A stretch of DNA of 12,619 bases, from IMG/VR virus record IMGVR_UViG_2695420600_000009, one strand, 5' to 3'. The translations under genes and the position numbers were made by a program. Each line of letters opens with the position of its first letter. Positions within the stretch are counted from its first letter, which is position 1. This document shows, piece after piece, positions 1 through 12,619 of the stretch. Source of the stretch: a virus (Duplodnaviria > Heunggongvirae > Uroviricota > Caudoviricetes). Below the pieces are notes generated by a model, which saw nothing but the letters and a program-made list of their open reading frames with translations, did no database searches and was not told the origin of the DNA.

Positions 1-86
1 ATGCCAAACTGCGATCGATTCAGATGCCATTTTGCAATCAGCGCCAGAACAGCAGCTGACAGGCCGTATTTGATTTTTGCGCTCAT
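1..86 (-). CDS. probable endolysin (lysozyme R), N-terminal 28 codons only; gene continues past the left edge of the window
   Basis: Minus-strand ATG at 86..84 followed by MSAKIKYGLSAAVLALIAKWHLNRSQFG, a Gly/Ala/Leu-rich signal-anchor-like N-terminus. It lies directly after holin and DUF826 genes, as in the Qin-type lysis cassette essQ-ydfR-rrrQ. Absent from the ORF track because fewer than 60 codons are visible. Confidence 0.4.
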   Translation of the reverse strand, partial: MSAKIKYGLSAAVLALIAKWHLNRSQFG

Positions 87-141
87 GGATATTTATCAGG
101 ATGCTACCAATGAAAGATACTGGAAAGCCAACTGCAAAAAG

Positions 142-456
142 CTAACAACCCGTAATCGAGTTATCAGAACTGTTAATTTTTATGGTATACCGCGCCTCTG
201 AACAGGGGCGCGTTTCTGGCAACAGCTCGTCCCCTTCACATAACCCGGCAGCAACATCCAAGAAGACCTGTCTGATGCTCCTTCTGGCTGCTGCCTCATA
301 AAACTCCAGCGCGGCACCTTCAACACGGTCCAGCGAGATGTCCAGGTCAAAAATTTCACCGTCAAAGCGTTTTTTGTCCCGTAACGCTAAAGTTACCGTA
401 ACTTTATTCTCAAAATTGCGGATCCCTTTCACAATCAGTTCATAGTTTTGAGTCAT
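142..456 (-). CDS. DUF826 / YdfR-like small prophage protein
   Basis: 104-aa ORF. The N-terminal two thirds (MTQNYELIVKGIRNFENKVTVTLALRDKKRFDGEIFDLDISLDRVEGAALEFYEAAARRS) match my recollection of the YdfR/DUF826 family that sits between holin and lysozyme in Qin-like prophages. The SD (GGGGAGAG) lies in the last codons of the holin gene. The C-terminal third is not recognisable and contains a strong hairpin. Confidence 0.6.
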   Translation of the reverse strand: MTQNYELIVKGIRNFENKVTVTLALRDKKRFDGEIFDLDISLDRVEGAALEFYEAAARRSIRQVFLDVAAGLCEGDELLPETRPCSEARYTIKINSSDNSITGC

Positions 457-460
457 TGAA

Positions 461-676
461 TTACTCTCCCCGTGCAGCCTTACGACGGTCCTCTCTGATT
501 TTGAAATACAGGTTAGTCAGATATGTCAGCAGCCCAAACAGCAGACTCCCCAGCACGCCTATTGCCGCCCACTGAGACGGGGAAACCCTGTCCAGCAACT
601 GCAGGAACCAGTAGCCCGTTCCCACCGCTGACGTGGTGTATGACACACCTGTTGTGATTTTTTCCATCTGGTACAT
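461..676 (-). CDS. S: phage 21-type class II holin (S21-like), 71 aa with dual-start motif MYQM
   Basis: ORF track 461..754 trimmed to the internal ATG at 676. [71 protein letters not shown] closely resembles the phage 21 S holin as I recall it, including the two closely spaced Met starts, two TM segments and a charged C-terminus. SD GGGAGACGGGG directly upstream. Confidence 0.85.
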
Positions 677-711
677 ACCCCGTCTCCCGTTATCCGGAAG
701 CTGACAACAAT

Positions 712-741
712 AAAAAAAGCCACCAGTTAAGTACTGATGGC
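712..741 (-). terminator. intrinsic terminator-like hairpin between nanS-p and the holin gene
   Basis: On the minus strand GCCATCAG-TACTTAA-CTGGTGGC (8-bp stem, one mismatch) is followed by TTTTTTTATTG. Confidence 0.5.
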
Positions 742-826
742 TCTGATAACTCATGCAGGCATCTCAGACGACCCACTGACACTACCGGTGAGTTTAACGA
801 TACCTTCCATTTGGCTGGCTCACTTT

Positions 827-2680
827 TTATGATGATGCCGGTGCATTTATCTCCAGCACCAGACTTTCTATCTCAACGCCATACGCTGCATTTTTGGTAA
901 TATCCGTCAGCGTCAGCGCATTCAGCCCCAGTGTCAGACTGTCTTTTATGACCTGGAATGCCGGGCCAGCCACTCCATTCAGTTTCGGAGTAACCGTGGC
1001 ACTGCCGGCGGTGAACACCAGCTCCAGCGTCAGCCAGTCGTTACTGTAATTCCCGAACTCGCCCAACTTTGTGTTTCCTGCTTTCTTGTGATGCATCAGA
1101 TTCAGTTTGCCGTCTGTGGTCTGGGTGAAGAACGACATCAGGAACGGGTTACCAGTCCCGGTCATCGCCACGACGTCAGGTAACGCTACATCGGTATACA
1201 GATAAATTCCCAGACCGAACTGGTTGTTGGTCAGTGCGCCTGACAGTCGAAACTTACAGCTCAGTCTGCCACCCCGTGTCAGCAGGGAGACTGCGTCATC
1301 CACCGGGCGCGTCAGGGACCAGGCTTTATTGCTCTGCTTGGTGATCTTAAATACACCATCTGACAACTGAACTCCGCCATTCTTAATGCTCCAGCCCTGC
1401 GCAGCAGCGTCTCCGGCTGTCGGCAACAGGGAGATTGTGCGTATGGATGCATCTTCAGACGGCCCCGATGGCGTGTCGCCGCCGGGCGAGGGTTTGATTT
1501 CCGGTGCCTTACCACTAATGAAGGCTAAGGTGCGACCGGCTACGTTCAGAATAGCAGTTGCCATACGATCGGGAATAATGCCACGACGCGCCCATGAGCT
1601 GAAATGCGTCGGGCGATTTGATGATACCCAGTTTTTGTTCGTTCGGGATGCCGAACCGTAATAACCAGACCCGGCAATATCAGGATCTTCTGACGGGTTG
1701 TTTGTCGGTGTATTAACTCCGCTACCATCGGTCATAAAGGGAACAAAATAAATCTGCTGGGATTCTTTACCTTTATATGCACCATATACCACTTCATATT
1801 GCGTACCGTGTTCTTGTTTCCACGCGTATGTCGTGTCGCCACAAATCCAGGGGACTGATGCCGGACTTCCACCGTGACACTGCGCCGCCAGCCCGGCAAG
1901 GTCAGCACGGAACTGCTGTACCATTGCAAGAAATGCTGCTGGCTGCTGGGCGTAACTGGCATTCGTCATATCGAATTCCCCCTGCATCCAGCATATCGCC
2001 AGCAAAACGTTTTTCGGGTTTTTCTGCAATGCTGCCTTCGTGCGGAAAAGCAGATCCTGATATAACGGCTTACCCACTCCCCAGCGAGCCGAATCCTGAC
2101 TGGCCCCCGTGGACTCGCTGAATGTCCCCTCCGTGCCCTGGGTGAATGCCGAACCACCACAACAGCATGGTACCAGCAGGATCCCCGCATTATTAGGGAT
2201 ATACGGAAGCAGTTTTTTGGCAATATGTAAGCCCTGTCCGACACAGCCGTACTGCCCTTTGCTCAGGTCAGCCCGGGGATGGTTAATCGTACTCATATCC
2301 TGAACATCATGCAGACAATGGTCAGCAGGAATGATGTCGTTAAATACGCATACTTCACCACCGGGAGTCACTGTGTTACGACGGGCCAGTTGCTTAATGC
2401 GCGGATGGGGCGCATCGTATGAATCCGGAAGCGGAAGACCTTCACCGTAAGCCATGGCATTGGATTGCCCGGCCAGTACGATGACGTAGTACCACTCCGG
2501 CTCAGTTGCACCACTGACGACCACATCACCTTCTGCTGCAATCGCCTGCATCAGGGTATAAGGGGTTATGGCCACCGGACTACCAAACGGCTGCCAGCCC
2601 TCCTTCAGTTTTTGTGTCAGTCGTTTCGCAAGGTCTGACGGCGATGCCGCCCTGACCACGTCATAGTGTTTAAATGCCAT
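827..2680 (-). CDS. nanS: prophage sialate (9-O-acetyl-N-acetylneuraminate) O-acetylesterase, NanS-p / YjhS-like, with N-terminal DUF1737-like region
   Basis: 617-aa ORF with SD GGGAGGA upstream of the ATG at 2680. The N-terminus MAFKHYDVVRAASPSDLAKRL and the GQSN motif (VLAGQSNAMAYGEG) fit the SGNH/DUF303 esterase family that EHEC lambdoid prophages carry downstream of the stx position. Recognised from memory of the family, not searched. Confidence 0.8.
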   Translation of the reverse strand: MAFKHYDVVRAASPSDLAKRLTQKLKEGWQPFGSPVAITPYTLMQAIAAEGDVVVSGATEPEWYYVIVLAGQSNAMAYGEGLPLPDSYDAPHPRIKQLARRNTVTPGGEVCVFNDIIPADHCLHDVQDMSTINHPRADLSKGQYGCVGQGLHIAKKLLPYIPNNAGILLVPCCCGGSAFTQGTEGTFSESTGASQDSARWGVGKPLYQDLLFRTKAALQKNPKNVLLAICWMQGEFDMTNASYAQQPAAFLAMVQQFRADLAGLAAQCHGGSPASVPWICGDTTYAWKQEHGTQYEVVYGAYKGKESQQIYFVPFMTDGSGVNTPTNNPSEDPDIAGSGYYGSASRTNKNWVSSNRPTHFSSWARRGIIPDRMATAILNVAGRTLAFISGKAPEIKPSPGGDTPSGPSEDASIRTISLLPTAGDAAAQGWSIKNGGVQLSDGVFKITKQSNKAWSLTRPVDDAVSLLTRGGRLSCKFRLSGALTNNQFGLGIYLYTDVALPDVVAMTGTGNPFLMSFFTQTTDGKLNLMHHKKAGNTKLGEFGNYSNDWLTLELVFTAGSATVTPKLNGVAGPAFQVIKDSLTLGLNALTLTDITKNAAYGVEIESLVLEINAPASS

Positions 2681-2873
2681 GAATCCTCCCGGCCGGGATA
2701 ATATTGTGAGTAAAATAAGGAGCGGGCTGAAGTCCGGAAGTTACAGGACAATGGCAGAAGAGAGACGACAGCCCGCAATTCGAAAAAGACCGCGCAGTTG
2801 CGCAGAGTGATTACTATGGGGTATTATTCGCCAGCTGAAATATTACTTCACGTTTTATTGTTTATTCCTTGCC

Positions 2874-2902
2874 GCCCGCGTCTCCCAGCGCGGGCTTTTT
2901 TT
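2874..2902 (+). terminator. plus-strand intrinsic terminator-like hairpin inside repeat A (second copy at 4700..4728)
   Basis: GCCCGCG-TCTCCCAG-CGCGGGC followed by TTTTTTT on the plus strand. Confidence 0.5.
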
Positions 2903-2910
2903 GCCCACAA

Positions 2911-2931
2911 GAAAACCCCTCCGGAGAGGGG
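2911..2931 (-). terminator. minus-strand terminator-like hairpin T1 in repeat A (copy at 4737..4757; diverged sub-repeat version at 3397..3418)
   Basis: Minus strand CCCCTC-TCCG-GAGGGG followed by TTTTCTTG. Confidence 0.45.
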
Positions 2932-3179
2932 CTAAAGCCGCGTATCTGTATCATCATGCACATGGTGCCGGGTGCCTCCCGGTGAGTTCAGCCCGGTGCC
3001 ACTAAACCCGCGTCATTCTCGTTTTGATAATCAGAGATTATACCGTCACCAGTCGCCCCTCCGCTCAGGGGGATTCACCATGCGAAATTTTTTTAACAAA
3101 TGCCCAGTCTGACAGGCAACTGTCAACTTACTGAATTGTGAGCAACATAGCATTTAACGGGGAACCTGTTTTCTGCAGT

Positions 3180-3206
3180 AAAAAGGCCCACCGGAGCGGA
3201 TGGGCC
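3180..3206 (-). terminator. minus-strand terminator-like hairpin T2 in repeat A (copy at 5006..5032)
   Basis: Minus strand GGCCCA-TCCGCTCCGG-TGGGCC followed by TTTTTACTG. Confidence 0.45.
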
Positions 3207-3811
3207 TGGAAGGATAGCGGTCATGTGATGCCGGTTTCCCGGTAACTCAGCACCGGTATCTGAGTCAACGTTTTCTCTACTGGGTCATTTCCGATACGCC
3301 CTGCCTGCTGACAGGCTTTCATCACATCTGAAAATATAGCACCCTGACTGATACTGTAGTACCTAAGGTTCCAGAAACTGTGATGTATCCGGCACAGAAA
3401 AGCCCCTCCGGAGAGGGCTGGAGAGTGGCGCTATGTGCCATTGCATGATGCCGGGTGCCTCCCGGTGAATTCAGTACCAGCACCTGAATCCGCGATTATC
3501 CCATATACCTACTCGCTGATTGCCCCTCCGCACAGGGGGATTCACCATGCCAGTTTCTTTTAACAAACTCCCCGCAAACCAGACAACAGTCAACCGCCTG
3601 AATTGTGAAGTATTTAAAAATTTCTCCCGCTAACTGATACCCGGCTAACAGTCTGGCGTTTTCTTTTTCAGCAACGGGAAAGCAACAACCACCACACCCG
3701 CCACCAGCACACCGTCAGCCAGCACTGACATTATCCGGCTGCTGCAATGCCATTCACAAAAACAGTAAGCAATCACTTTTTACCGTAACAGGTGATAATC
3801 CAGATATGTAT

Positions 3812-4138
3812 CTACCCCAGATGAGTAATCCGAAGTTCATCCATACCACAGGTCCTGGCTATTCTGTTGTACTCCTGAACAAGAGCAAATAATTCTGAAT
3901 TAGCAACCATGAACTCATCGCAAACCCTCTGTATAGCATCACTATTCAGAATAATAACGTCTCTTCCCGAAAGACGATCAGGAGTACAGAACAAAACTGT
4001 CAAACGGCTGAAGGCCTTTGCTCGTGCTGCATTGACTATATCAATACGCTGCCTAAGGATGAAACACCCCGACGCCTCATCAATATTCACTCTACCCACA
4101 CCATATGAATGATAAATATTTAATGCTGAAAAAACCAT
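3812..4138 (-). CDS. hypothetical protein in AT-rich cargo segment (108 aa from first ATG; ORF track extends to a TTG at 4165)
   Basis: A 354-nt open frame in clearly AT-rich DNA, where stop codons are frequent, argues for real coding. It is on the late-transcribed strand. No convincing SD and no family I can recognise. An antisense 67-aa ORF (3909..4112) overlaps it. Confidence 0.35.
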   Translation of the reverse strand: MVFSALNIYHSYGVGRVNIDEASGCFILRQRIDIVNAARAKAFSRLTVLFCTPDRLSGRDVIILNSDAIQRVCDEFMVANSELFALVQEYNRIARTCGMDELRITHLG

Positions 4139-4275
4139 TAGACCGTATAACAAACACTCAATCAATACTTAACAGAACTTTTATTTTTGACAAACATAAA
4201 ATATTTTCAACAATATCCTGAGCCAGGTATATTTCAGTATAAGGCTCTGCCGGAAGGAATCTGGAAGAATGAATA

Positions 4276-4352
4276 TGGCGCGCTGTACTGGATTCGAACC
4301 AGTGACCGATTGCTTAGAAGGCAATTGCTCTGTCCGGCTGAGCTAACAACGC
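4276..4352 (-). tRNA. tRNA-Arg (anticodon TCT), cluster 1
   Basis: Reverse complement GCGTTGTTAGCTCAGCCGGACAGAGCAATTGCCTTCTAAGCAATCGGTCACTGGTTCGAATCCAGTACAGCGCGCCA folds as a 77-nt cloverleaf with anticodon loop CTTCTAA, T-loop TTCGAAT and encoded CCA. One G-U pair in the acceptor stem, where cluster 2 has A-U. Confidence 0.85.
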
Positions 4353-4365
4353 TGAATACCGATAA

Positions 4366-4445
4366 TGGACCGCCATCGGGGACCCGCCCCCGCACCAACA
4401 ACCCTGTTATCATGTCGTCTGCTCTTCCTGATAAGCTAATGGCGG
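4366..4445 (-). pseudogene. degenerate tRNA-like sequence (disrupted counterpart of tRNA-Arg TCG at 5572..5648)
   Basis: Acceptor stem, D-arm, 3' T-stem half and CCA match the cluster-2 tRNA. The anticodon arm, variable loop and 5' T-stem are replaced by AGACGACATGATAACAGGGTTGTTGGTGCGGGGGCGGGT, which does not form a cloverleaf. Confidence 0.6.
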
Positions 4446-4452
4446 TTTGTGA

Positions 4453-4528
4453 TGGTGGCCCTTGCTGGATTTGAACCAGCGACCTGGCGATTATGAGTCG
4501 CTCGCTCTCACCACTGAGCTAAAGGGCC
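4453..4528 (-). tRNA. tRNA with anticodon CAT (Ile2/lysidine-type or Met; ileZ-like), cluster 1
   Basis: Reverse complement GGCCCTTTAGCTCAGTGGTGAGAGCGAGCGACTCATAATCGCCAGGTCGCTGGTTCAAATCCAGCAAGGGCCACCA; 76-nt cloverleaf with anticodon loop CTCATAA. Stx-type phages carry ileZ-argN-argO at this position. Confidence 0.85.
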
Positions 4529-4567
4529 GGGAGCAGAATAATAACGGTCCGTAATTAATTCCGCAAT

Positions 4568-4681
4568 AAAAAACCCGCTCGGCGGCGGGTTGTAGAAACT
4601 CTTCTAACGTCAGGCATAAAACGCCCATAGTTATGACGAATTTACCACAGATTCCGGAAAAATCAACCTAGTTACCTTTTT
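4568..4681 (-). repeat. repeat B copy 1: duplicated Q 3' tail plus terminator module (remnant; second copy 7299..7413 is attached to the intact Q gene)
   Basis: About 114 bp identical, bar one or two bases, to 7299..7413. It encodes the last ~17 codons of Q (KVTRLIFPESVVNSS stop) followed by the terminator hairpin at 4568..4591, with no upstream Q coding sequence. An N at 4682 marks the junction with repeat A copy 2. Confidence 0.8.
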
Positions 4682-4682
4682 N

Positions 4683-5450
4683 ATTGTTTATTCCTTGCCG
4701 CCCGCGTCTCCCAGCGCGGGCTTTTTTTGCCCACAAGAAAACCCCTCCGGAGAGGGGCTAAAGCCGCGTATCTGTATCATCATGCACATGGTGCCGGGTG
4801 CCTCCCGGTGAGTTCAGCCCGGTGCCACTAAACCCGCGTCATTCTCGTTTTGATAATCAGAGATTATACCGTCACCAGTCGCCCCTCCGCTCAGGGGGAT
4901 TCACCATGCGAAATTTTTTTAACAAATGCCCAGTCTGACAGGCAACTGTCAACTTACTGAATTGTGAGCAACATAGCATTTAACGGGGAACCTGTTTTCT
5001 GCAGTAAAAAGGCCCACCGGAGCGGATGGGCCTGGAAGGATAGCGGTCATGTGATGCCGGTTTCCCGGTAACTCAGCACCGGTATCTGAGTCAACGTTTT
5101 CTCTACTGGGTCATTTCCGATACGCCCTGCCTGCTGACAGGCTTTCATCACATCTGAAAATATAGCACCCTGACTGATACTGTAGTACCTAAGGTTCCAG
5201 AAACTGTGATGTATCCGGCACAGAAAAGCCCCTCCGGAGAGGGCTGGAGAGTGGCGCTATGTGCCATTGCATGATGCCGGGTGCCTCCCGGTGAATTCAG
5301 TACCAGCACCTGAATCCGCGATTATCCCATATACCTACTCGCTGATTGCCCCTCCGCACAGGGGGATTCACCATGCCAGTTTCTTTTAACAAACTCCCCG
5401 CAAAACAGACAACTGTCAACCGTCTGAATTGTGAGACATTTAAAAAAAAG
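4683..5450. repeat. repeat A copy 2 (see 2853..3620)
   Basis: Near-identical to copy 1 over ~770 bp. ORF-track entries 5297..5530 and 5346..5552 in this region run into the tRNA genes and are rejected. Confidence 0.9.
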
Positions 5451-5771: not shown

Positions 5772-6830
5772 TCATCCGTTCTGGCTGACTAAATCCTGTA
5801 CTTCCCGAACCGTCTGCTCAAAACGTTCAGTCTCCAGCTCAACGCCAATTGCACGACGCCCGAGCGCCAGTGCCGCTTTCACTGTCGAACCCAACCCCAT
5901 GAAAAAATCTGCAATCAGGTCACCCGGACGACTGCTAGCGCTGATTATCTGCTGCAGCATTTCTGCCGGTTTTTCGCACGGATGTTTCCCGGGATAGAAC
6001 TGCACCGGTTTATGCGTCCACACATCGGTATACGGCACCTGCACCGTCACGCCAAAATACCGCCGCAGATGTTTATATTCACTCAGCAGCTCCGCATACT
6101 GCCGGTTCAGTGAGGTATACGTATCCACCAGCTGGTGGTGGAGCTTTTCCAGTTCACCACGCCGATGCTTCTCTTCTGCCACCCGGGCAAACAGCGCCTG
6201 TAATTTCAGATAATCGCTTTCATTCGGCAACTGCCACTGACCGGCACTGAACCAGTGCGACACCATGTTTTTCTTTCCTGTGGCATCTGCAATCTGTTTT
6301 GCCGTTATCCCCAGGGCAGCTCGCGCATCACGAAAGTAAGAAATCAGCGGGGCCATCACATGCTGTTTCAGTGCACTGCCCTTCGCCGCATACCCGGCAT
6401 CTTTCGGACGATACGGCCCCTGATAATGTTCCGCGAACAGAATGCGCTCTGTGGCGGGGAAATACGCCCGCAGGCTTTCCTTGTTGCATCCGTTCCAGCG
6501 TCCGGACGGCTTCGCCCAGATAATATGGTTCAGCACACTGAAGCGTTCACGCATCATGATTTCGATATCAGATGCCAGGCGATGACCACAGAACAGGTAA
6601 AGACTTCCGGCAGGTTTCAGCACCCGCCAGAACTGCGCCAGACACTGGTCCAGCCACTTCAGGTAATCATCGTCGCCCTTCCACTGGTTATCCCAGCCCT
6701 CAGGCTTCACTTTAAAGTACGGCGGGTCCGTGACTATCAGGTCAACAGAATTTTCGGGTAACGACCGGATAAATTCCAGGCAGTCGGCGTTGATTAACTC
6801 ACAACTGGATATTTTTACAGTATTAAGCAT
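5772..6830 (-). CDS. DNA methyltransferase, beta-class amino-MTase (N6-adenine or N4-cytosine), orphan (no adjacent endonuclease gene)
   Basis: 352-aa ORF with catalytic motif DPPY near the N-terminus (LIVTDPPYF) and a SAM-binding FxGxG-like motif near the C-terminus (DFFMGLGST). This motif order is typical of beta-class MTases. Sits between Q and the tRNA cluster. Confidence 0.85.
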   Translation of the reverse strand: MLNTVKISSCELINADCLEFIRSLPENSVDLIVTDPPYFKVKPEGWDNQWKGDDDYLKWLDQCLAQFWRVLKPAGSLYLFCGHRLASDIEIMMRERFSVLNHIIWAKPSGRWNGCNKESLRAYFPATERILFAEHYQGPYRPKDAGYAAKGSALKQHVMAPLISYFRDARAALGITAKQIADATGKKNMVSHWFSAGQWQLPNESDYLKLQALFARVAEEKHRRGELEKLHHQLVDTYTSLNRQYAELLSEYKHLRRYFGVTVQVPYTDVWTHKPVQFYPGKHPCEKPAEMLQQIISASSRPGDLIADFFMGLGSTVKAALALGRRAIGVELETERFEQTVREVQDLVSQNG

Positions 6831-6965
6831 GGATCATTAAGCCTGTCTCTGATAGGCTCATTCTGCTTTTGCGCAAAGCAGTGGGCCTGAGGTTTGCTTG
6901 TGAACCCAACGCATGAGCAGATGGCTGGTGGGTGCCCCTAACACCCACCAGCCGCCCATTTACCA

Positions 6966-6994
6966 CAAATAAAAAAGCCTTCACTGCGGAAGGC
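6966..6994 (-). terminator. intrinsic terminator-like hairpin at the 3' end of the small winged-helix gene
   Basis: Minus strand GCCTTC-CGCAGT-GAAGGC followed by TTTTTTATTTG; the stem overlaps the stop codon at 6981..6983. Confidence 0.55.
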
Positions 6995-7178
6995 GTCTGT
7001 AACAACCGAACTGATAGTCTGCCAGACCCGCCATAACCAGCTGGGTCAGTATTAACTGGCAGCGTTCGCGTGAAAGGTAAGTATTCTGCGCTATCTCCCC
7101 GACTGTCGCCGGTTCGGTAACGCTTAATTCATTAAACACCACTCTGGCGGTTTCTGTCATATCCTGCTGTTTTAGCAT
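6981..7178 (-). CDS. small winged-helix-like DNA-binding protein (65 aa), hypothetical
   Basis: Good SD (AAGGA) 7 nt upstream of the ATG at 7178. The segment TVGEIAQNTYLSRERCQLILTQLVMAGL has the helix-turn-helix plus recognition-helix pattern of wHTH regulators. Family assignment is inference. Confidence 0.55.
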   Translation of the reverse strand: MLKQQDMTETARVVFNELSVTEPATVGEIAQNTYLSRERCQLILTQLVMAGLADYQFGCYRRLPQ

Positions 7179-7298
7179 GTCTTTTCCTTTTCCGGTTAAC
7201 GTGACACACCAATAACTCTTGTCGAAAAAGCCAGCAAGCTGAAAGACAGGTATTCACCGCCACCAGCGCGTTTACTGTACTGACGCGATTTCAGTCAT

Positions 7299-7322
7299 AA
7301 AAAACCCGCTCGGCGGCGGGTT
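7299..7322 (-). terminator. intrinsic terminator immediately downstream of Q (candidate tR')
   Basis: Minus strand CCCGC-CGCCGA-GCGGG followed by TTTTTTAT, ~40 nt after the Q stop codon. Duplicated at 4568..4591. Confidence 0.6.
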
Positions 7323-7361
7323 GTAGAAACTCTTCTAACGTCAGGCATAAAACGCCCATCG

Positions 7362-8216
7362 TTATGACGAATTTACCACAGATTCCGGAAAAATCAACCT
7401 AGTTACCTTTTTTAACTGCCGCTCAGCCCATGCTTCTTCAATATCAAACCGGGTCACCAGCGCATCATAGAATTTCTTAACTGTTTTTTCCCATGACGCG
7501 CGTGTTATCTGGTTTGTCACCTCGCATATAGCATTAAATGCCTCCGTTGATGGTAGTCTTTCATAGCCACGACCACCACAACGCTGGCAGTCTCTGATAA
7601 CAGGCATACCACGTTTTACCGACTCTTCACGATGAATGGCGACACCACGCCCACGGCAATCCTTACAGGCGGTGGAAACCTCACCCTTTCCGCCACACTC
7701 CGGACAGGCAACTTTTACCACCTCCCTGACTTTTTTCCATTCTTCCCAGTAAGACGGATACACACCTTTCGTACACTTTGCCCATACCGGCGGCTTACCA
7801 TCCGGATACTGGATCTTGTTTGTAAAAACCTCGCTTTCAATAAATTTTTTTCCGTGACAGCAGGGGCACTGTTTTTTGCTCGCCGCGCTACGGGCATAAT
7901 CTTCAAACGCATACGAAGCCATAATACGCATCACTGCCGGTTTTATTTCTGCCGGGAGTTTTCTTAACGCCGCCACGCGATCACACCGACTGAGTGCATA
8001 TTCTGTCAGCAATTCTGTTGCCCGCTCTCTGTCATTCATACTAATGCCCATTTTCCCAAGGAACGCAGAAACCCCCATCTCAGCCCGATTCTGTGTCATG
8101 CCCTGCGCGGCCATCACATCAGTGATACTCAGCGCATCTTTCGACGTTGAGGCCGATGCATCAGTCAGGCCGGGGGATTTTGGGGAGTAGTATTTCGGTA
8201 AATCTTCCAGTTTCAT
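7362..8216 (-). CDS. Q: Q-family late-gene antiterminator with four CxxCxG(xG) zinc-finger-like motifs
   Basis: 284-aa ORF in the canonical position: downstream of rusA with ATGA start/stop overlap, upstream of terminator, tRNAs and lysis genes. The N-terminal region resembles Qin-type Q (quuQ-like) proteins as I recall them. Cys motifs CPCCHGKK, CPECGGKG, CKDCRGRG, CQRCGGRG. Confidence 0.7.
   Translation of the reverse strand: MKLEDLPKYYSPKSPGLTDASASTSKDALSITDVMAAQGMTQNRAEMGVSAFLGKMGISMNDRERATELLTEYALSRCDRVAALRKLPAEIKPAVMRIMASYAFEDYARSAASKKQCPCCHGKKFIESEVFTNKIQYPDGKPPVWAKCTKGVYPSYWEEWKKVREVVKVACPECGGKGEVSTACKDCRGRGVAIHREESVKRGMPVIRDCQRCGGRGYERLPSTEAFNAICEVTNQITRASWEKTVKKFYDALVTRFDIEEAWAERQLKKVTRLIFPESVVNSS
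7370..7397 (-). promoter_or_regulatory. candidate late promoter pR' overlapping the last codons of Q
   Basis: Minus strand TTGATT (-35), 16-bp spacer, TAAATT (-10), located just upstream of the terminator at 7299..7322. Hexamer match only; no experimental support. Same motifs in repeat B copy 1 at 4639..4666. Confidence 0.3.
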
Positions 8217-9998: not shown

Positions 9999-10259
9999 TC
10001 ACTCATCTTCAAAAGCAGAAAAACCAGCCTTAATCCCAGCTTCTTTCAGAGACGGCAACGATGTGACAAATTCATTTGCACGCGAAATAAAACCATCCGT
10101 CACAAGCCCATCCACAAAATGAATTAACGCAGCTCCACTCTTCCTTTGTTGAGACTGTAAACATTTAATACGGCAGTGGCTGACAATAGCGCCATTCTCA
10201 ACGCGCACAGTATAGAGGCCATCTTCACTAAAAATTTCACGTAATTCTTCGATTTTCAT
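9999..10259 (-). CDS. hypothetical protein, paralog 1 of a tandemly duplicated gene (86 aa from ATG; track shows a TTG one codon upstream)
   Basis: MKIEELREIFSEDGLYTVRVENGAIVSHCRIKCLQSQQRKSGA is ~85% identical over the first ~75 residues to the ORF at 10667..10954. SD GGAAGGA. Family not recognised. Confidence 0.6.
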   Translation of the reverse strand: MKIEELREIFSEDGLYTVRVENGAIVSHCRIKCLQSQQRKSGAALIHFVDGLVTDGFISRANEFVTSLPSLKEAGIKAGFSAFEDE

Positions 10260-10343
10260 CAACAGAATCCTTCCAGATAAATAGCACTCCCCTGTTCGGG
10301 GTCCATCCCTCTTCTCCCTGCGCGCTACTTAAGTGAGTCGATT

Positions 10344-10374
10344 NNNNNNNNNNNNNNNNNNNNNNNNNNNNNNN
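10344..10374. other. assembly gap (31 N)
   Basis: Run of N in the sequence. It interrupts the gene starting at 10628 and the upstream region of paralog 1. Confidence 1.
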
Positions 10375-10628
10375 CACAGGTAATCAACGAAACCGGACAC
10401 CAGTTTTCGTTCGCGAGGCGTGATCGCCCCACCGACCGGAGTCCAGTAATCGAAACCCAGTTGCAGGAGTTTGAAAAAACGCTTGTGGAATGCGTAGTTA
10501 CACACACGCTTAAAGTCTGCGTGTATCCACTCACCTATTTTGATTTGATGCAGAAAATCGCAACTCTCCGGCGTCGCCGGGAGAAGTAATCCGGAAGAGG
10601 TTTGTTTGACCAGTTGTATATGTGCCAT
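10375..10628 (-). CDS. hypothetical prophage protein, 3' end lost in the gap
   Basis: ATG at 10628 in the same duplicated RBS context as 9932; MAHIQLVKQTSSGLLLPATPESCDFLHQIKIGEWIHADFKRVCNYAFHKRFFKLLQLGFDYWTPVGGAITPRERKLVSGFVDYL, then N. The track ORF 10329..10670 reads through the Ns. Confidence 0.45.
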
Positions 10629-10666
10629 CGGCTTTCTCCGGTGGCACGGTGTTACACAGCAGGAGT

Positions 10667-10954
10667 TCAATCCTGCTCAAGATTGTAGATGAGTTTATTC
10701 TTCAGCAAAAGCAGAAAACCAGCCTTAAAACCAATCTCTTTCAAAACCCGTAATGATGTGACAAATTCGTCCTCACGCAAAATAAAACCGTCCGTCAGAA
10801 GTCCATTACAAAAATAAAATAACACAGCACCGCTCTTCCTTTGTTGAGATTGCAAACATCTAATGCGGCAATGGCTGACAATCGCTCCATTCTCAACGCG
10901 CACAGCATAGAGGCCATTTTCACTAAAAATTTCACGCAATTCTTCGATTTTCAT
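10667..10954 (-). CDS. hypothetical protein, paralog 2 of the tandemly duplicated gene (95 aa)
   Basis: ATG at 10954 with SD GGAAGGA. Upstream on the minus strand is TTGATT-16 bp-TAGAAT, a plausible sigma-70 promoter. The C-terminus diverges from paralog 1 after KAGF. Confidence 0.6.
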   Translation of the reverse strand: MKIEELREIFSENGLYAVRVENGAIVSHCRIRCLQSQQRKSGAVLFYFCNGLLTDGFILREDEFVTSLRVLKEIGFKAGFLLLLKNKLIYNLEQD

Positions 10955-11077
10955 CTTCAGAATCCTTCCAGATAAATAGCTCTCCCCTGTTCGGGGTCCA
11001 TCCCTCTTCTCCCTGCGCGCTACTTAAGTGAGTCGATTCTATCTGCGAAGGTGCGCGAATCAAATTCACCGGAAATA

Positions 11078-11126
11078 AACAACAAAAAACCCGCCGAAAC
11101 GCTGAGAGATCACAGCGATGGGCGGG
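11078..11126 (-). terminator. terminator-like stem-loop after the truncated hok copy
   Basis: Minus strand CCCGCC ... GGCGGG stem enclosing an inner CGCTG/CAGCG stem, followed by TTTTTTGTTGTTTATTT. Confidence 0.45.
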
Positions 11127-11203
11127 TTAAGTGCGGGTGCGTTGAGGATGCCTGACACATCAGAGGTGGGCGGGGATGGGATCAGCTCCCCGCCCGGTCA
11201 CTC

Positions 11204-11303
11204 TTACTTCCTGGATTCGTAGTCTACGAAGACAGCGACCTCCGTCTGGCCGGTTCGGATTCGTACCTCACAGAGGTCTTTCCTCGTTACCAGTGCCGTC
11301 ACT
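11204..11303 (-). pseudogene. truncated hok copy (3' ~33 codons plus 3' UTR), tandem to the intact gene
   Basis: Minus strand reads ...TRKDLCEVRIRTGQTEVAVFVDYESRK stop, homologous to the C-terminal half of the hok ORF at 11421..11576. The copy begins at an N (11304) directly after the intact gene's terminator. The 3' UTR (11127..11203) is homologous to 11353..11420. Confidence 0.7.
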
Positions 11304-11319
11304 NAACTTCAAACGCGTT

Positions 11320-11351
11320 GAAAATAAAAACAAAAACCCGCCGAAGCGGGT
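11320..11351 (-). terminator. intrinsic terminator of the hok transcript
   Basis: Minus strand CCCGC-TTCGG-GCGGG followed by TTTTTGTTTTTATTTTC, ~70-100 nt downstream of the hok stop. Confidence 0.6.
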
Positions 11352-11420
11352 TAAGTGTGGGTGCATTGAGGATGCCTGACCCATCAGAGGTGGCGAGGGA
11401 TTTCTCCCCCGCCTGGTCTC

Positions 11421-11576
11421 TTACTCCTCAGGTTCGTAAGCTGTGAAGACAGCGACCTCCGTCTGGCCGGTTCGAATTCGTACCTCGCAGAGGTCTTTCC
11501 TCGTTACCAGTGCCGTCACTATGACGGTTAAACAGATGACGATCAGGGCGATTAACATCGCCTTTTGCTGCTTCAT
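11421..11576 (-). CDS. hokD: Hok/Gef-family type I toxin (51 aa), HokD/RelF-like
   Basis: MKQQKAMLIALIVICLTVIVTALVTRKDLCEVRIRTGQTEVAVFTAYEPEE matches the HokD (RelF) sequence as I recall it. SD GGAGAAGCAGG upstream. The track ORF (11421..11633) also contains an in-frame upstream ATG with its own SD (mok-like leader). No relBE genes precede it here. Confidence 0.9.
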   Translation of the reverse strand: MKQQKAMLIALIVICLTVIVTALVTRKDLCEVRIRTGQTEVAVFTAYEPEE

Positions 11577-11867
11577 AGCCTGCTTCTCCTTGCCTTTCGG
11601 CACGTAAGAGGCTAACCTAGATTTGCCGTTCATAGATTGAGCCTCAGATTAATGTTAAGCGTCTTGCCGGACGCGTAATGTTAACTGGGGCTTTTCTCTA
11701 TCTGCCTTTTGGTGTTCATGCCTGAGACAGATAGCCTCAAGCACCCGCTGCAATTCTACTTAACTCTCCTTTTCCCGCAAACCGTTTTTATCCCCAGCGG
11801 CAAATCGAATACACCACCAGCGCCACCGCCATCGCAATTCCTACCGTTGTTAATGCTTCAGGCCAGG

Positions 11868-12212
11868 TCATCGTAAAATATCCTCCACGCTTATCAGTCC
11901 GTTCCGCTCCAGATAACTCATCGCCTTATCCGGTAATTTGCAGTCTGGCTTCGCTTTTCTCAGTTGCCAGGTTAACTGCTTTACCAGCATGGTTAACTCA
12001 TCGACCAGACGCTGATATCCCACTGGTTTGTATTCATGCAATTTACCGGCTGGCTCTGCTGCCAGCGATACCAGTGCGATTTCCAGAACAGCAATATCCA
12101 TCTTATATGTGCGGATGATGTCATGGTCGATTGTGCCCGGTATGCACAGTCTCTGTGCTTCAATAGTCTCCTCTGCGTGAGCTATTAACTGCTCTCTGGT
12201 AAAAGTCGTCAT
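11868..12212 (-). CDS. hypothetical protein (114 aa)
   Basis: Start overlaps the stop of the upstream 55-aa gene (ATGA). Shares the motif IAL-x-SL-x-AEP with that gene. Family not recognised. Confidence 0.5.
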
Positions 12213-12376
12213 GCCGTAGCCCCTTCTTGATATTTTTCAAACCAGAACACAACCGGCTCTGCTTCCAGCGATGCCAGCGCAATCCGTGCCAGTTCCATTT
12301 GTTCACCACGGGTAAGCCCGTTTTCAAGCGGGTTTTTAATGAACAATTCAATACGTTCTTTGGTAATAGTGGTCAT
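12209..12376 (-). CDS. hypothetical small protein (55 aa), not in the ORF track (<60 aa)
   Basis: Strong SD AAGGAG 7 nt upstream of the ATG at 12376. Translation [55 protein letters not shown]. Stop overlaps the next start. Confidence 0.5.
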
Positions 12377-12386
12377 GTGTTACTCC

Positions 12387-12617
12387 TTAACCCGCAGTGC
12401 TTTCAACTGATGAGGGGAACAAAATCTTTTCATCAAACCCTGCATTCATATCATGAACAGCAACACACCAATCCATCGACGAACGATTATCAAGAGCCTC
12501 CATGATTTCATCCATGCGGCGTAGGTCATACAGGTAAATGCTTTTATCGCCAATGGTGTAAAAGCCAATTTTTTTCGGTGATGGATGAGGTGTACTGGCA
12601 ATAGCGGACACTACCAT
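12387..12617 (-). CDS. hypothetical protein (76 aa if the ATG at 12617 is the true start; may be partial)
   Basis: ORF begins 2 nt from the right edge of the window, so the real N-terminus cannot be judged. Its stop TAA is embedded in the SD of the next gene (TAAGGAG). Confidence 0.4.
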   Translation of the reverse strand: MVVSAIASTPHPSPKKIGFYTIGDKSIYLYDLRRMDEIMEALDNRSSMDWCVAVHDMNAGFDEKILFPSSVESTAG

Positions 12618-12619
12618 TT

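Follow-up and report, generated by a model that had tools for sequence, protein, structure and literature searches.

The virus record IMGVR_UViG_2695420600_000009 (Caudoviricetes), a stretch of 12,619 nucleotides (nt) that was analyzed at its full length and is referred to here as the window, contains a type I toxin-antitoxin locus of the hok/sok kind and, beside it, a second unit made up of the 3' part of a hok gene, which an earlier note on this DNA had taken for a truncated tandem copy. Based on the comparisons presented herein, we propose that this "tandem copy" belongs to a second prophage of the strain, paralogous to the first, and is the end at which one of its contigs was cut off and scaffolded at a single N (position 11304), and that the full hok/sok locus next to it is an ordinary one, a reading to which we assign a probability of about 93%. 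The truncated unit would then be neither an RNA decoy nor a duplication scar, the two roles between which the earlier note had hesitated, and would represent a contig end from a paralogous prophage locus. The hok/sok locus in the window is real and already known, being a standard prophage module.

The second unit (11078..11303) is indeed present in the record, with the terminal 32 hok codons, a 3' untranslated region (UTR) and a terminator with a longer loop, so that the letters on which the claim of a truncated tandem copy was built are there; it is the genomic tandem that does not stand, given the N at 11304 and the single copy in the reference genomes. The segment 11122..11303 aligns with 11346..11520 of the full unit at 86% identity with gaps (E = 4e-50 in a self-BLAST) or 89% without, and the likeness of the two hok units is far beyond chance. 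The open reading frame (ORF) fragment at 11204..11302 encodes VTALVTRKDLCEVRIRTGQTEVAVFVDYESRK and matches positions 16-42 of the 42 in the HOK_GEF profile. Its C-terminus reads ...VFVDYESRK where the full copy ends in ...VFTAYEPEE, a difference that had been described correctly. The unit stops exactly at the single N at 11304, which the earlier note did not mention. Since both the unit and the repeat end exactly at this N, the "tandem" adjacency is a trait of the scaffolded record and is not demonstrated in the DNA. The features concerned are as follows.

11204..11303, minus strand: end of a paralogous hok gene, 32 codons and the stop (...VFVDYESRK), cut by the contig end (from the ORF list, Pfam and comparison with K-12)
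11084..11203, minus strand: 3' UTR of the paralogous hok, with a fold-back inhibition (fbi) element at 11135-11152 and a long-loop terminator at 11084-11128 (read from the sequence; 100% identical to the FDAARGOS_944 locus, L001)
11304: single N, scaffold join between contigs C3 and C4
10344..10374: 31-N scaffold gap between contigs C2 and C3

The window contains three N sites in all, at 4682 (one N), at 10344-10374 (31 N) and at 11304 (one N). In the self-BLAST, every long direct repeat of the window starts or ends, to the base, at one of them.

4566-4681, followed by N: repeat arm, partner 7297-7412, 99% identity
4683-5446, preceded by N: repeat arm, partner 2853-3620, 99% identity
9925-10343, followed by N: repeat arm, partner 10621-11038, 86% identity
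11122-11303, followed by N: repeat arm, partner 11346-11520, 86% identity

Because the repeat edges coincide with all three N sites, we regard the window as four contigs that were chained by a scaffolder.

1-4681: contig C1
4683-10343: contig C2
10375-11303: contig C3 (929 nt), on which lie a phrog_340 ORF, the beginning of a DUF1367 gene and, of the paralogous hok locus, the 3' part
11305-12619: contig C4, with the full hok/sok locus

The ends of neighboring contigs are homologous and not identical. The two hok paralogues, that of C4 and that of the FDAARGOS_944 type, have in common an exact run of 115 nt (window 11488-11602) that takes in the 5' half of hok along with the Shine-Dalgarno region and the candidate sok promoter, and C3 ends 33 nt into this run, because a short-read assembler cannot resolve such a core. 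The terminal 44 nt of C2 are identical to positions 10995-11038 of C3, and the last 9 nt of C2 take the C3-type path, unlike the closest relatives of C2. The ends of C2 and C3 are thus typical short-read contig ends at collapsed repeats, and some scaffolders put a single N where two contigs lie at a non-positive distance and have no exact overlap. We propose that C3 comes from a second prophage of the same strain, in which its hok would be complete, and that the scaffolder, in chaining the contigs, laid C3 between C2 and C4 and wrote the single N at 11304. The true neighbor of the full hok unit would then be C2, which ends at 10343 and would lie only about 29 nt away. Masking of contiguous sequence was considered for the 31 N and rejected, as the C2 end maps to positions 6247-6664 of the FDAARGOS_944 locus and not beside its position 6001.

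The gap-free references carry each side of 11304 into different sequence. Specifically, C3 aligns in a single piece with the closed genome of Escherichia coli FDAARGOS_944 (L001) at 99.9% identity over all 929 nt, its terminal 354 nt matching at 354/354, and the FDAARGOS_944 sequence runs on past the point at which C3 breaks off into a complete, single hokD (MKQQ...VFVDYESRK) that has its own leader and queH upstream. The same ...VFVDYESRK 3' end is found on a complete 51-residue hok, one unit per locus, in 21 of 21 IMG/VR contigs. On the other side, L015 and L051, two IMG/VR contigs free of N and with one hok, are identical to C2 at 99.8-100% and to C4 at 99.6-99.8%, and in both of them the equivalents of position 10334 in C2 and position 11305 in C4 are 29 nt apart with nothing C3-like between them. 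C2 and C4 are likewise adjacent in the closed genomes Ecol_545 (L004) and C7 (L002). In all of the references that were aligned (L001-L004, L147 and L148), both of the window units map to one single hok unit. An assembly duplication, which the earlier note had set up as the outcome opposed to its own proposal, is therefore what the comparative evidence points to.

These comparisons bear directly on the alternative that part of the locus (the 3' half of hok, the 3' UTR and the terminator) was truly duplicated in tandem, in which case the N would be one ambiguous base and the extra fbi-bearing 3' element might be a decoy or a mere scar. In the record the two units do lie side by side and point the same way, as that explanation demands, and a single N alone is no proof of a gap. 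However, the units are only 86-89% identical and come from two different prophage lineages, the left unit with its 700-nt flank has 99.9% identity to a genome that carries a single, complete hok, and near-identical relatives free of N join C2 straight to C4. Nor does a duplication sit well with N sites that fall at repeat ends in all three cases, or with a break inside the 115-nt exact repeat between the paralogues. Furthermore, the truncated unit lacks a promoter and a leader of its own (the one match to the Rfam family RF01794 in the window is at the full unit), as expected for a contig end, and so no discrete RNA would be made from it unless by read-through past the upstream terminator.

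The junction is also absent from every collection searched, namely 5,426 complete E. coli genomes, 185,579 species represented by one genome each, and the IMG/VR viral contigs. With a 196-nt junction query, 44 of the complete E. coli genomes gave matches that cover at least 80% of it, all of them as two pieces and with one hokD annotated, and no single alignment spanning the junction was returned from any of the 5,426. The two pieces together span 215-218 nt of the record in 41 of these genomes and 187-191 nt in the remaining three (H130-H132), where about 216 nt is expected for one unit. Four of the 44 were aligned directly (L002, L004, L147 and L148), among them two of the three with short spans, and all four are single-copy. 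The short-span matches were considered as possible collinear tandems and rejected on the two of the three that were aligned, H130 and H131, both of which are single-copy. The exact junction pattern gave 0 matches in the species genomes and 0 in IMG/VR, as did a loose pattern of a terminator followed by mid-hok sequence within 5-35 nt. A control pattern in the normal order was found in at least 120 viral contigs; in the window it occurs a single time, at the full unit. No second hok unit was found within 1.8 kb in the 124 loci that were fetched (1.18 Mb). Hence, neither determined sequence across the junction, which is interrupted by the N at 11304, nor the same junction in relatives was found, and we consider a genuine duplication to be extremely unlikely.

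A different possibility is that the two prophage segments are truly neighbors, as tandem prophages or a recombinant, with the N standing for a gap of unknown size and two complete hok loci lying close together. Scaffolders use read-pair links, which can reflect real proximity, and several hok prophages per genome are common (a median of 2 and a maximum of 10 matching places). We judge this arrangement to be very unlikely, as C2 and C4 are directly contiguous in L015, L051, L002 and L004, and read-pair links that pass through a 115-nt identical core are of the kind that misleads scaffolders. In addition, C3 has N joins on both sides and its left part is homologous to the C2 end, as would be seen if a small contig of a paralogue had been placed on that same position. 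It is also exceedingly improbable that a second 3' half of hok, promoter-less and with an fbi element and a terminator of its own, truly lies directly downstream of the intact locus after capture from another prophage. If this were the case and the unit were transcribed by read-through, its extra fbi element could compete for the tac element at the 5' end of the hok mRNA or for 3' processing enzymes, and so shift the timing of Hok activation.

The unit on C4 is a complete hok locus, and the earlier note was right to describe there a full Hok ORF with an upstream mok-like start, a 3' UTR and a terminator, as borne out by the ORF list, the Pfam match and a terminator scan. Its elements, several of them predicted, are listed here.

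11421..11576, minus strand: hok toxin coding sequence, 51 amino acids (aa), MKQQKAMLIALIVICLTVIVTALVTRKDLCEVRIRTGQTEVAVFTAYEPEE (from the ORF list, Pfam, PHROG and identity with K-12 HokD)
11421..11633, minus strand: mok-like ORF, 70 aa, which adds 19 in-frame codons to the N-terminal end of hok (from the ORF list)
11325..11352, minus strand: intrinsic terminator of the hok mRNA, AACCCGC-TTCG-GCGGGTT (11352..11335) followed by a T-run (from the terminator scan)
11359..11371, minus strand: predicted fbi element in the hok 3' UTR, CCUCAAUGCACCC, pairing with tac in the minimum free energy (MFE) and centroid folds
11571..11746, minus strand: 5' leader of the hok mRNA, from the tac end to the hok start codon (Rfam RF01794, "sok")
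11735..11746, minus strand: predicted tac element at the 5' end of the hok mRNA, GGGUGCUUGAGG (from the MFE fold)
11753..11780, minus strand: candidate promoter of hok, TTGCGG, 16 nt, TAGAAT, with 6 nt between its end and the 5' end of the leader (read from the sequence)
11590..11618, plus strand: candidate sok promoter, -35 TTGCCT (11590-11595), 17-nt spacer, -10 TAACCT (11613-11618) (from conservation and position)
11625..11698, plus strand: candidate Sok antisense RNA of about 74 nt, with a single-stranded 5' tail, a long hairpin and GGGGCUUUUCUC (from folding, the ends being approximate)

The formal search for a Hok family, which had been suggested as a check, gave a clear match of the 51-aa ORF to the full profile (1-42) of Pfam PF01848 HOK_GEF, with 81.6 bits (cut-off 22) and E = 3e-23. 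The best-matching PHROG is phrog_251, "MokW-like host killing" (E = 2.8e-33), and the protein is identical to K-12 HokD at 51 of 51 residues. The Pfam match and the HokD identity together define it as a small hydrophobic toxin of the Hok/Gef family. The mok ATG at 11633 lies in frame 57 nt upstream of the hok ATG, within the Rfam leader match, where it would be covered by the predicted 5' tail of Sok.

The leader matches the complete RF01794 model (1-157) with 112.4 bits, where the gathering score is 59 (E = 1.8e-25), which shows that the conserved leader (the tac, ucb and sokT region) is in place upstream of hok. Because it runs from GGGUGCUUGAGG to the hok AUG, the RF01794 model describes the sense-strand hok leader, that is, the region to which Sok is antisense, and the Rfam check thereby places at 11571..11746 the Sok region that the earlier note had been unable to locate. 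The predicted fold of the 419-nt mRNA (11746 to 11328) has an energy of -169.2 kcal/mol (z = -6.97), and in both the MFE and the centroid structures nt 1-12 (tac) are paired with nt 376-388 (fbi). The 3' fold-back element that had been expected from the known behavior of Hok mRNAs thus has a predicted counterpart in the full unit, and all of the 84 unique homologous loci have standard pairs at the 12 tac-fbi positions. On the plus strand, where the earlier note had called for a search for an antisense promoter, the -35 of the candidate at 11590..11618 is invariant in the same 84 loci and its -10 is nearly so. The position of this candidate presumably agrees with that of the sok promoter of plasmid R1. 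The plus-strand segment 11610-11712 folds with -37.7 kcal/mol (z = -4.25) into a hairpin followed by the U-run GGGGCUUUUCUC at 11687-11698, and the 5' tail of the transcript would be complementary to the mok start region. We regard the unit at about 11625-11698 as a candidate for the Sok antisense RNA.

By analogy with the hok/sok paradigm of R1 and the tested hokW-sokW pair of prophage Sp5, and from the sequence elements at the window locus, we infer the following mechanism. A stable hok mRNA would start at about 11746 and be kept closed by the pairing of its 5' tac with its 3' fbi element. Trimming of the 3' end would remove fbi, upon which the leader would refold and allow translation of mok, coupled to that of the 51-aa membrane toxin Hok. 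The short, unstable Sok RNA, transcribed from the plus strand at about 11625-11698, would cover the mok start and block translation for as long as the element is present and transcribed. Decay of Sok would then permit Hok to be made and the inner membrane to be damaged.

Four points weigh against the overall reading proposed here. First, the artificial join is deduced from comparative evidence, and some residual doubt attaches to it. Second, the lone N might conceivably stand for an ambiguous base. Third, a covariation test of the tac-fbi pairing over the 84 homologues gave no signal, and the pairing gains no covariation support because those columns are near-invariant and barely vary among the homologues. 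Fourth, a strict sigma-70 consensus scan reported neither the sok nor the hok promoter, their matches to the consensus being weak. The search for an antisense promoter therefore has a divided outcome, with a conserved candidate that is followed by a hairpin and U-run on the one hand and a strict scan that returns none on the other. Because they fall below the strict consensus, both promoters are given as candidates on the grounds of position, conservation and analogy.

Among the closest known systems is hokW-sokW of Sp5 (prophage 5 of E. coli O157:H7 Sakai), which like the window locus is a hok/sok module of a lambdoid prophage with a 51-aa toxin, the likeness being one of organization and not of aligned sequences. 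The Sp5 genes were shown experimentally to be a toxin/antitoxin pair in which an antisense RNA under its own promoter is the antitoxin, a role in phage release was demonstrated, and HokW is distant from the Hok of R1, at 44% identity (PMC8621323). The flanking genes of Sp5 differ from those of the window, prophages being mosaic, and in O157:H7 genomes loci annotated as hokD match window positions 10950-11750 at about 89% identity.

The comparison with hokD (relF) of the K-12 Qin prophage is the one that the earlier note had drawn, in remarking on the absence of relBE in the window. It is correct that relBE is not upstream: no RelB or RelE was found among the ORFs upstream of hok, which have no matches in Pfam and belong in PHROGs to phage families of unknown function only. 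The Qin DNA is 97.9% identical to the window over 11305..11590 (286 nt, comprising the coding sequence, 3' UTR, fbi element and terminator), but unlike in the window the homology gives way to relB-relE 14 nt upstream of the hok ATG. Since the homology ends at relBE, Qin hokD is without the tac/mok/sok leader, whereas the window locus keeps the whole leader. It is Qin hokD that is the rearranged exception, and a leader-bearing locus without relBE is the common arrangement in prophages. Indeed, 4,933 of the 5,426 complete E. coli genomes contain sequence matching this region, at a median of 2 places per genome, and a recent survey found hok to be enriched in prophages (bioRxiv 10.1101/2025.08.07.668861).

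Like the window locus, hok/sok (parB) of plasmid R1 combines a Hok/Gef toxin with an upstream mok, a 5' tac and 3' fbi, an intrinsic terminator and an antisense Sok whose promoter lies inside the mok-hok region (a candidate in the case of the window). The mok frame of the window is in frame with hok, unlike that of R1, in which mok is in another frame than hok. It should be noted that the window locus is in a prophage and R1 is a plasmid. The biological consequence of our reading is small, as the module is standard and its toxin is identical to K-12 HokD.

The practical consequence is a warning: single-N joins in draft assemblies of E. coli with multiple lambdoid prophages can make phage genes, small RNAs and toxin loci look as if they were partially duplicated in tandem, and the window alone contains three such false duplications, so that an N at a repeat edge is worth checking before an unusual repeat is interpreted. 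The window resembles other scaffold joins of one or a few N in multi-prophage E. coli drafts in that the N are at repeat edges, the contig ends are homologous and not identical, and one end lies inside an exact repeat. At the C1/C2 join (4682), a false 1.8-kb "duplication" at 99% identity includes two copies of an STnc100 small RNA. In L051, which is free of N, the C1 end (to 4681) overlaps C2 at 7297-7412, and therefore C1 and the leftmost 2.6 kb of C2 represent the same region in alternative prophage versions and are not neighbors. At the C2/C3 join there are two apparently paralogous phrog_340 ORFs, of 87 aa (9999-10262) and 95 aa (10667-10954), at 86% DNA identity, one for each prophage. 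A 250-nt segment of C2 (9922-10171), present in Ecol_545 (L004), is missing in L015 and L051, the closest relatives of C2 that are free of N; this indel takes the 3' (C-terminal) part of the 87-aa phrog_340 ORF from L015 and L051. Another IMG/VR contig, IMGVR_UViG_2681813273_000007 (L146), has single-N joins at 3650, 6951 and 7995 with flanking pseudo-duplications, for example 6576-6950, N, 6952-7326 at 90%, and its numeric identifier is near that of L015, the best match to C4. The single-N join artefact looks systematic for drafts of this kind.

As a whole, the window is the early-right to late region of lambdoid prophages that resemble Shiga toxin (Stx) phages, part of which appears twice because of the C1/C2 join. 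It contains the ORFs of unknown function upstream of hok, hok/sok itself, the phrog_340 ORF, DUF968, RusA, antiterminator Q, a DNA methylase, tRNA genes, the STnc100 small RNAs, a NanS-p-type esterase and a holin. The esterase is a 617-aa ORF at 827-2680 (minus strand) with the domains DUF1737, SASA (sialate O-acetylesterase) and DUF6645, which mark it as a NanS-p-type prophage esterase. NanS-p-type esterases lie downstream of stx in Stx phages, and no stx gene is present in the window.

Close to the hok units, the only site that the strict sigma-70 scan reported in 11000-11900 is TTGATT, 16 nt, TAGAAT at 11036-11063 (minus strand), just downstream of the hok terminator of C3 and upstream of the 95-aa ORF at 10667-10954. 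Upstream of the full hok unit, a 27-aa hydrophobic ORF at 11788-11871 (minus strand) has a start that overlaps the stop of a 114-aa ORF (ATGA) and ends 8 nt before the -35 of the candidate hok promoter. It is intact in 47 of 48 tblastn matches among the fetched loci, including variants of about 55-60% identity with conservative substitutions, is unannotated in the RefSeq locus L003, and may be a real small membrane protein.

Four matches to Rfam STnc100 (RF02076) lie on the minus strand at 2903-3112, 3390-3579, 4729-4938 and 5216-5405, with 161, 122.5, 161 and 123.6 bits, respectively. C1 and C2 each carry two copies that have diverged and are spaced by about 490 nt, between the tRNA genes and the NanS-p-type esterase, and there is one pair per prophage once the scaffold artefact is allowed for. 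The tRNA genes, also on the minus strand, are Arg(tct) and Met(cat) in C1 (4276-4528) and Arg(tct), Arg(tcg) and Met(cat) in C2 (5482-5731). The "Met(cat)" genes are located where RefSeq has tRNA-Ile in related prophages, which is consistent with a tRNA of the ileX/ileZ type that carries lysidine.

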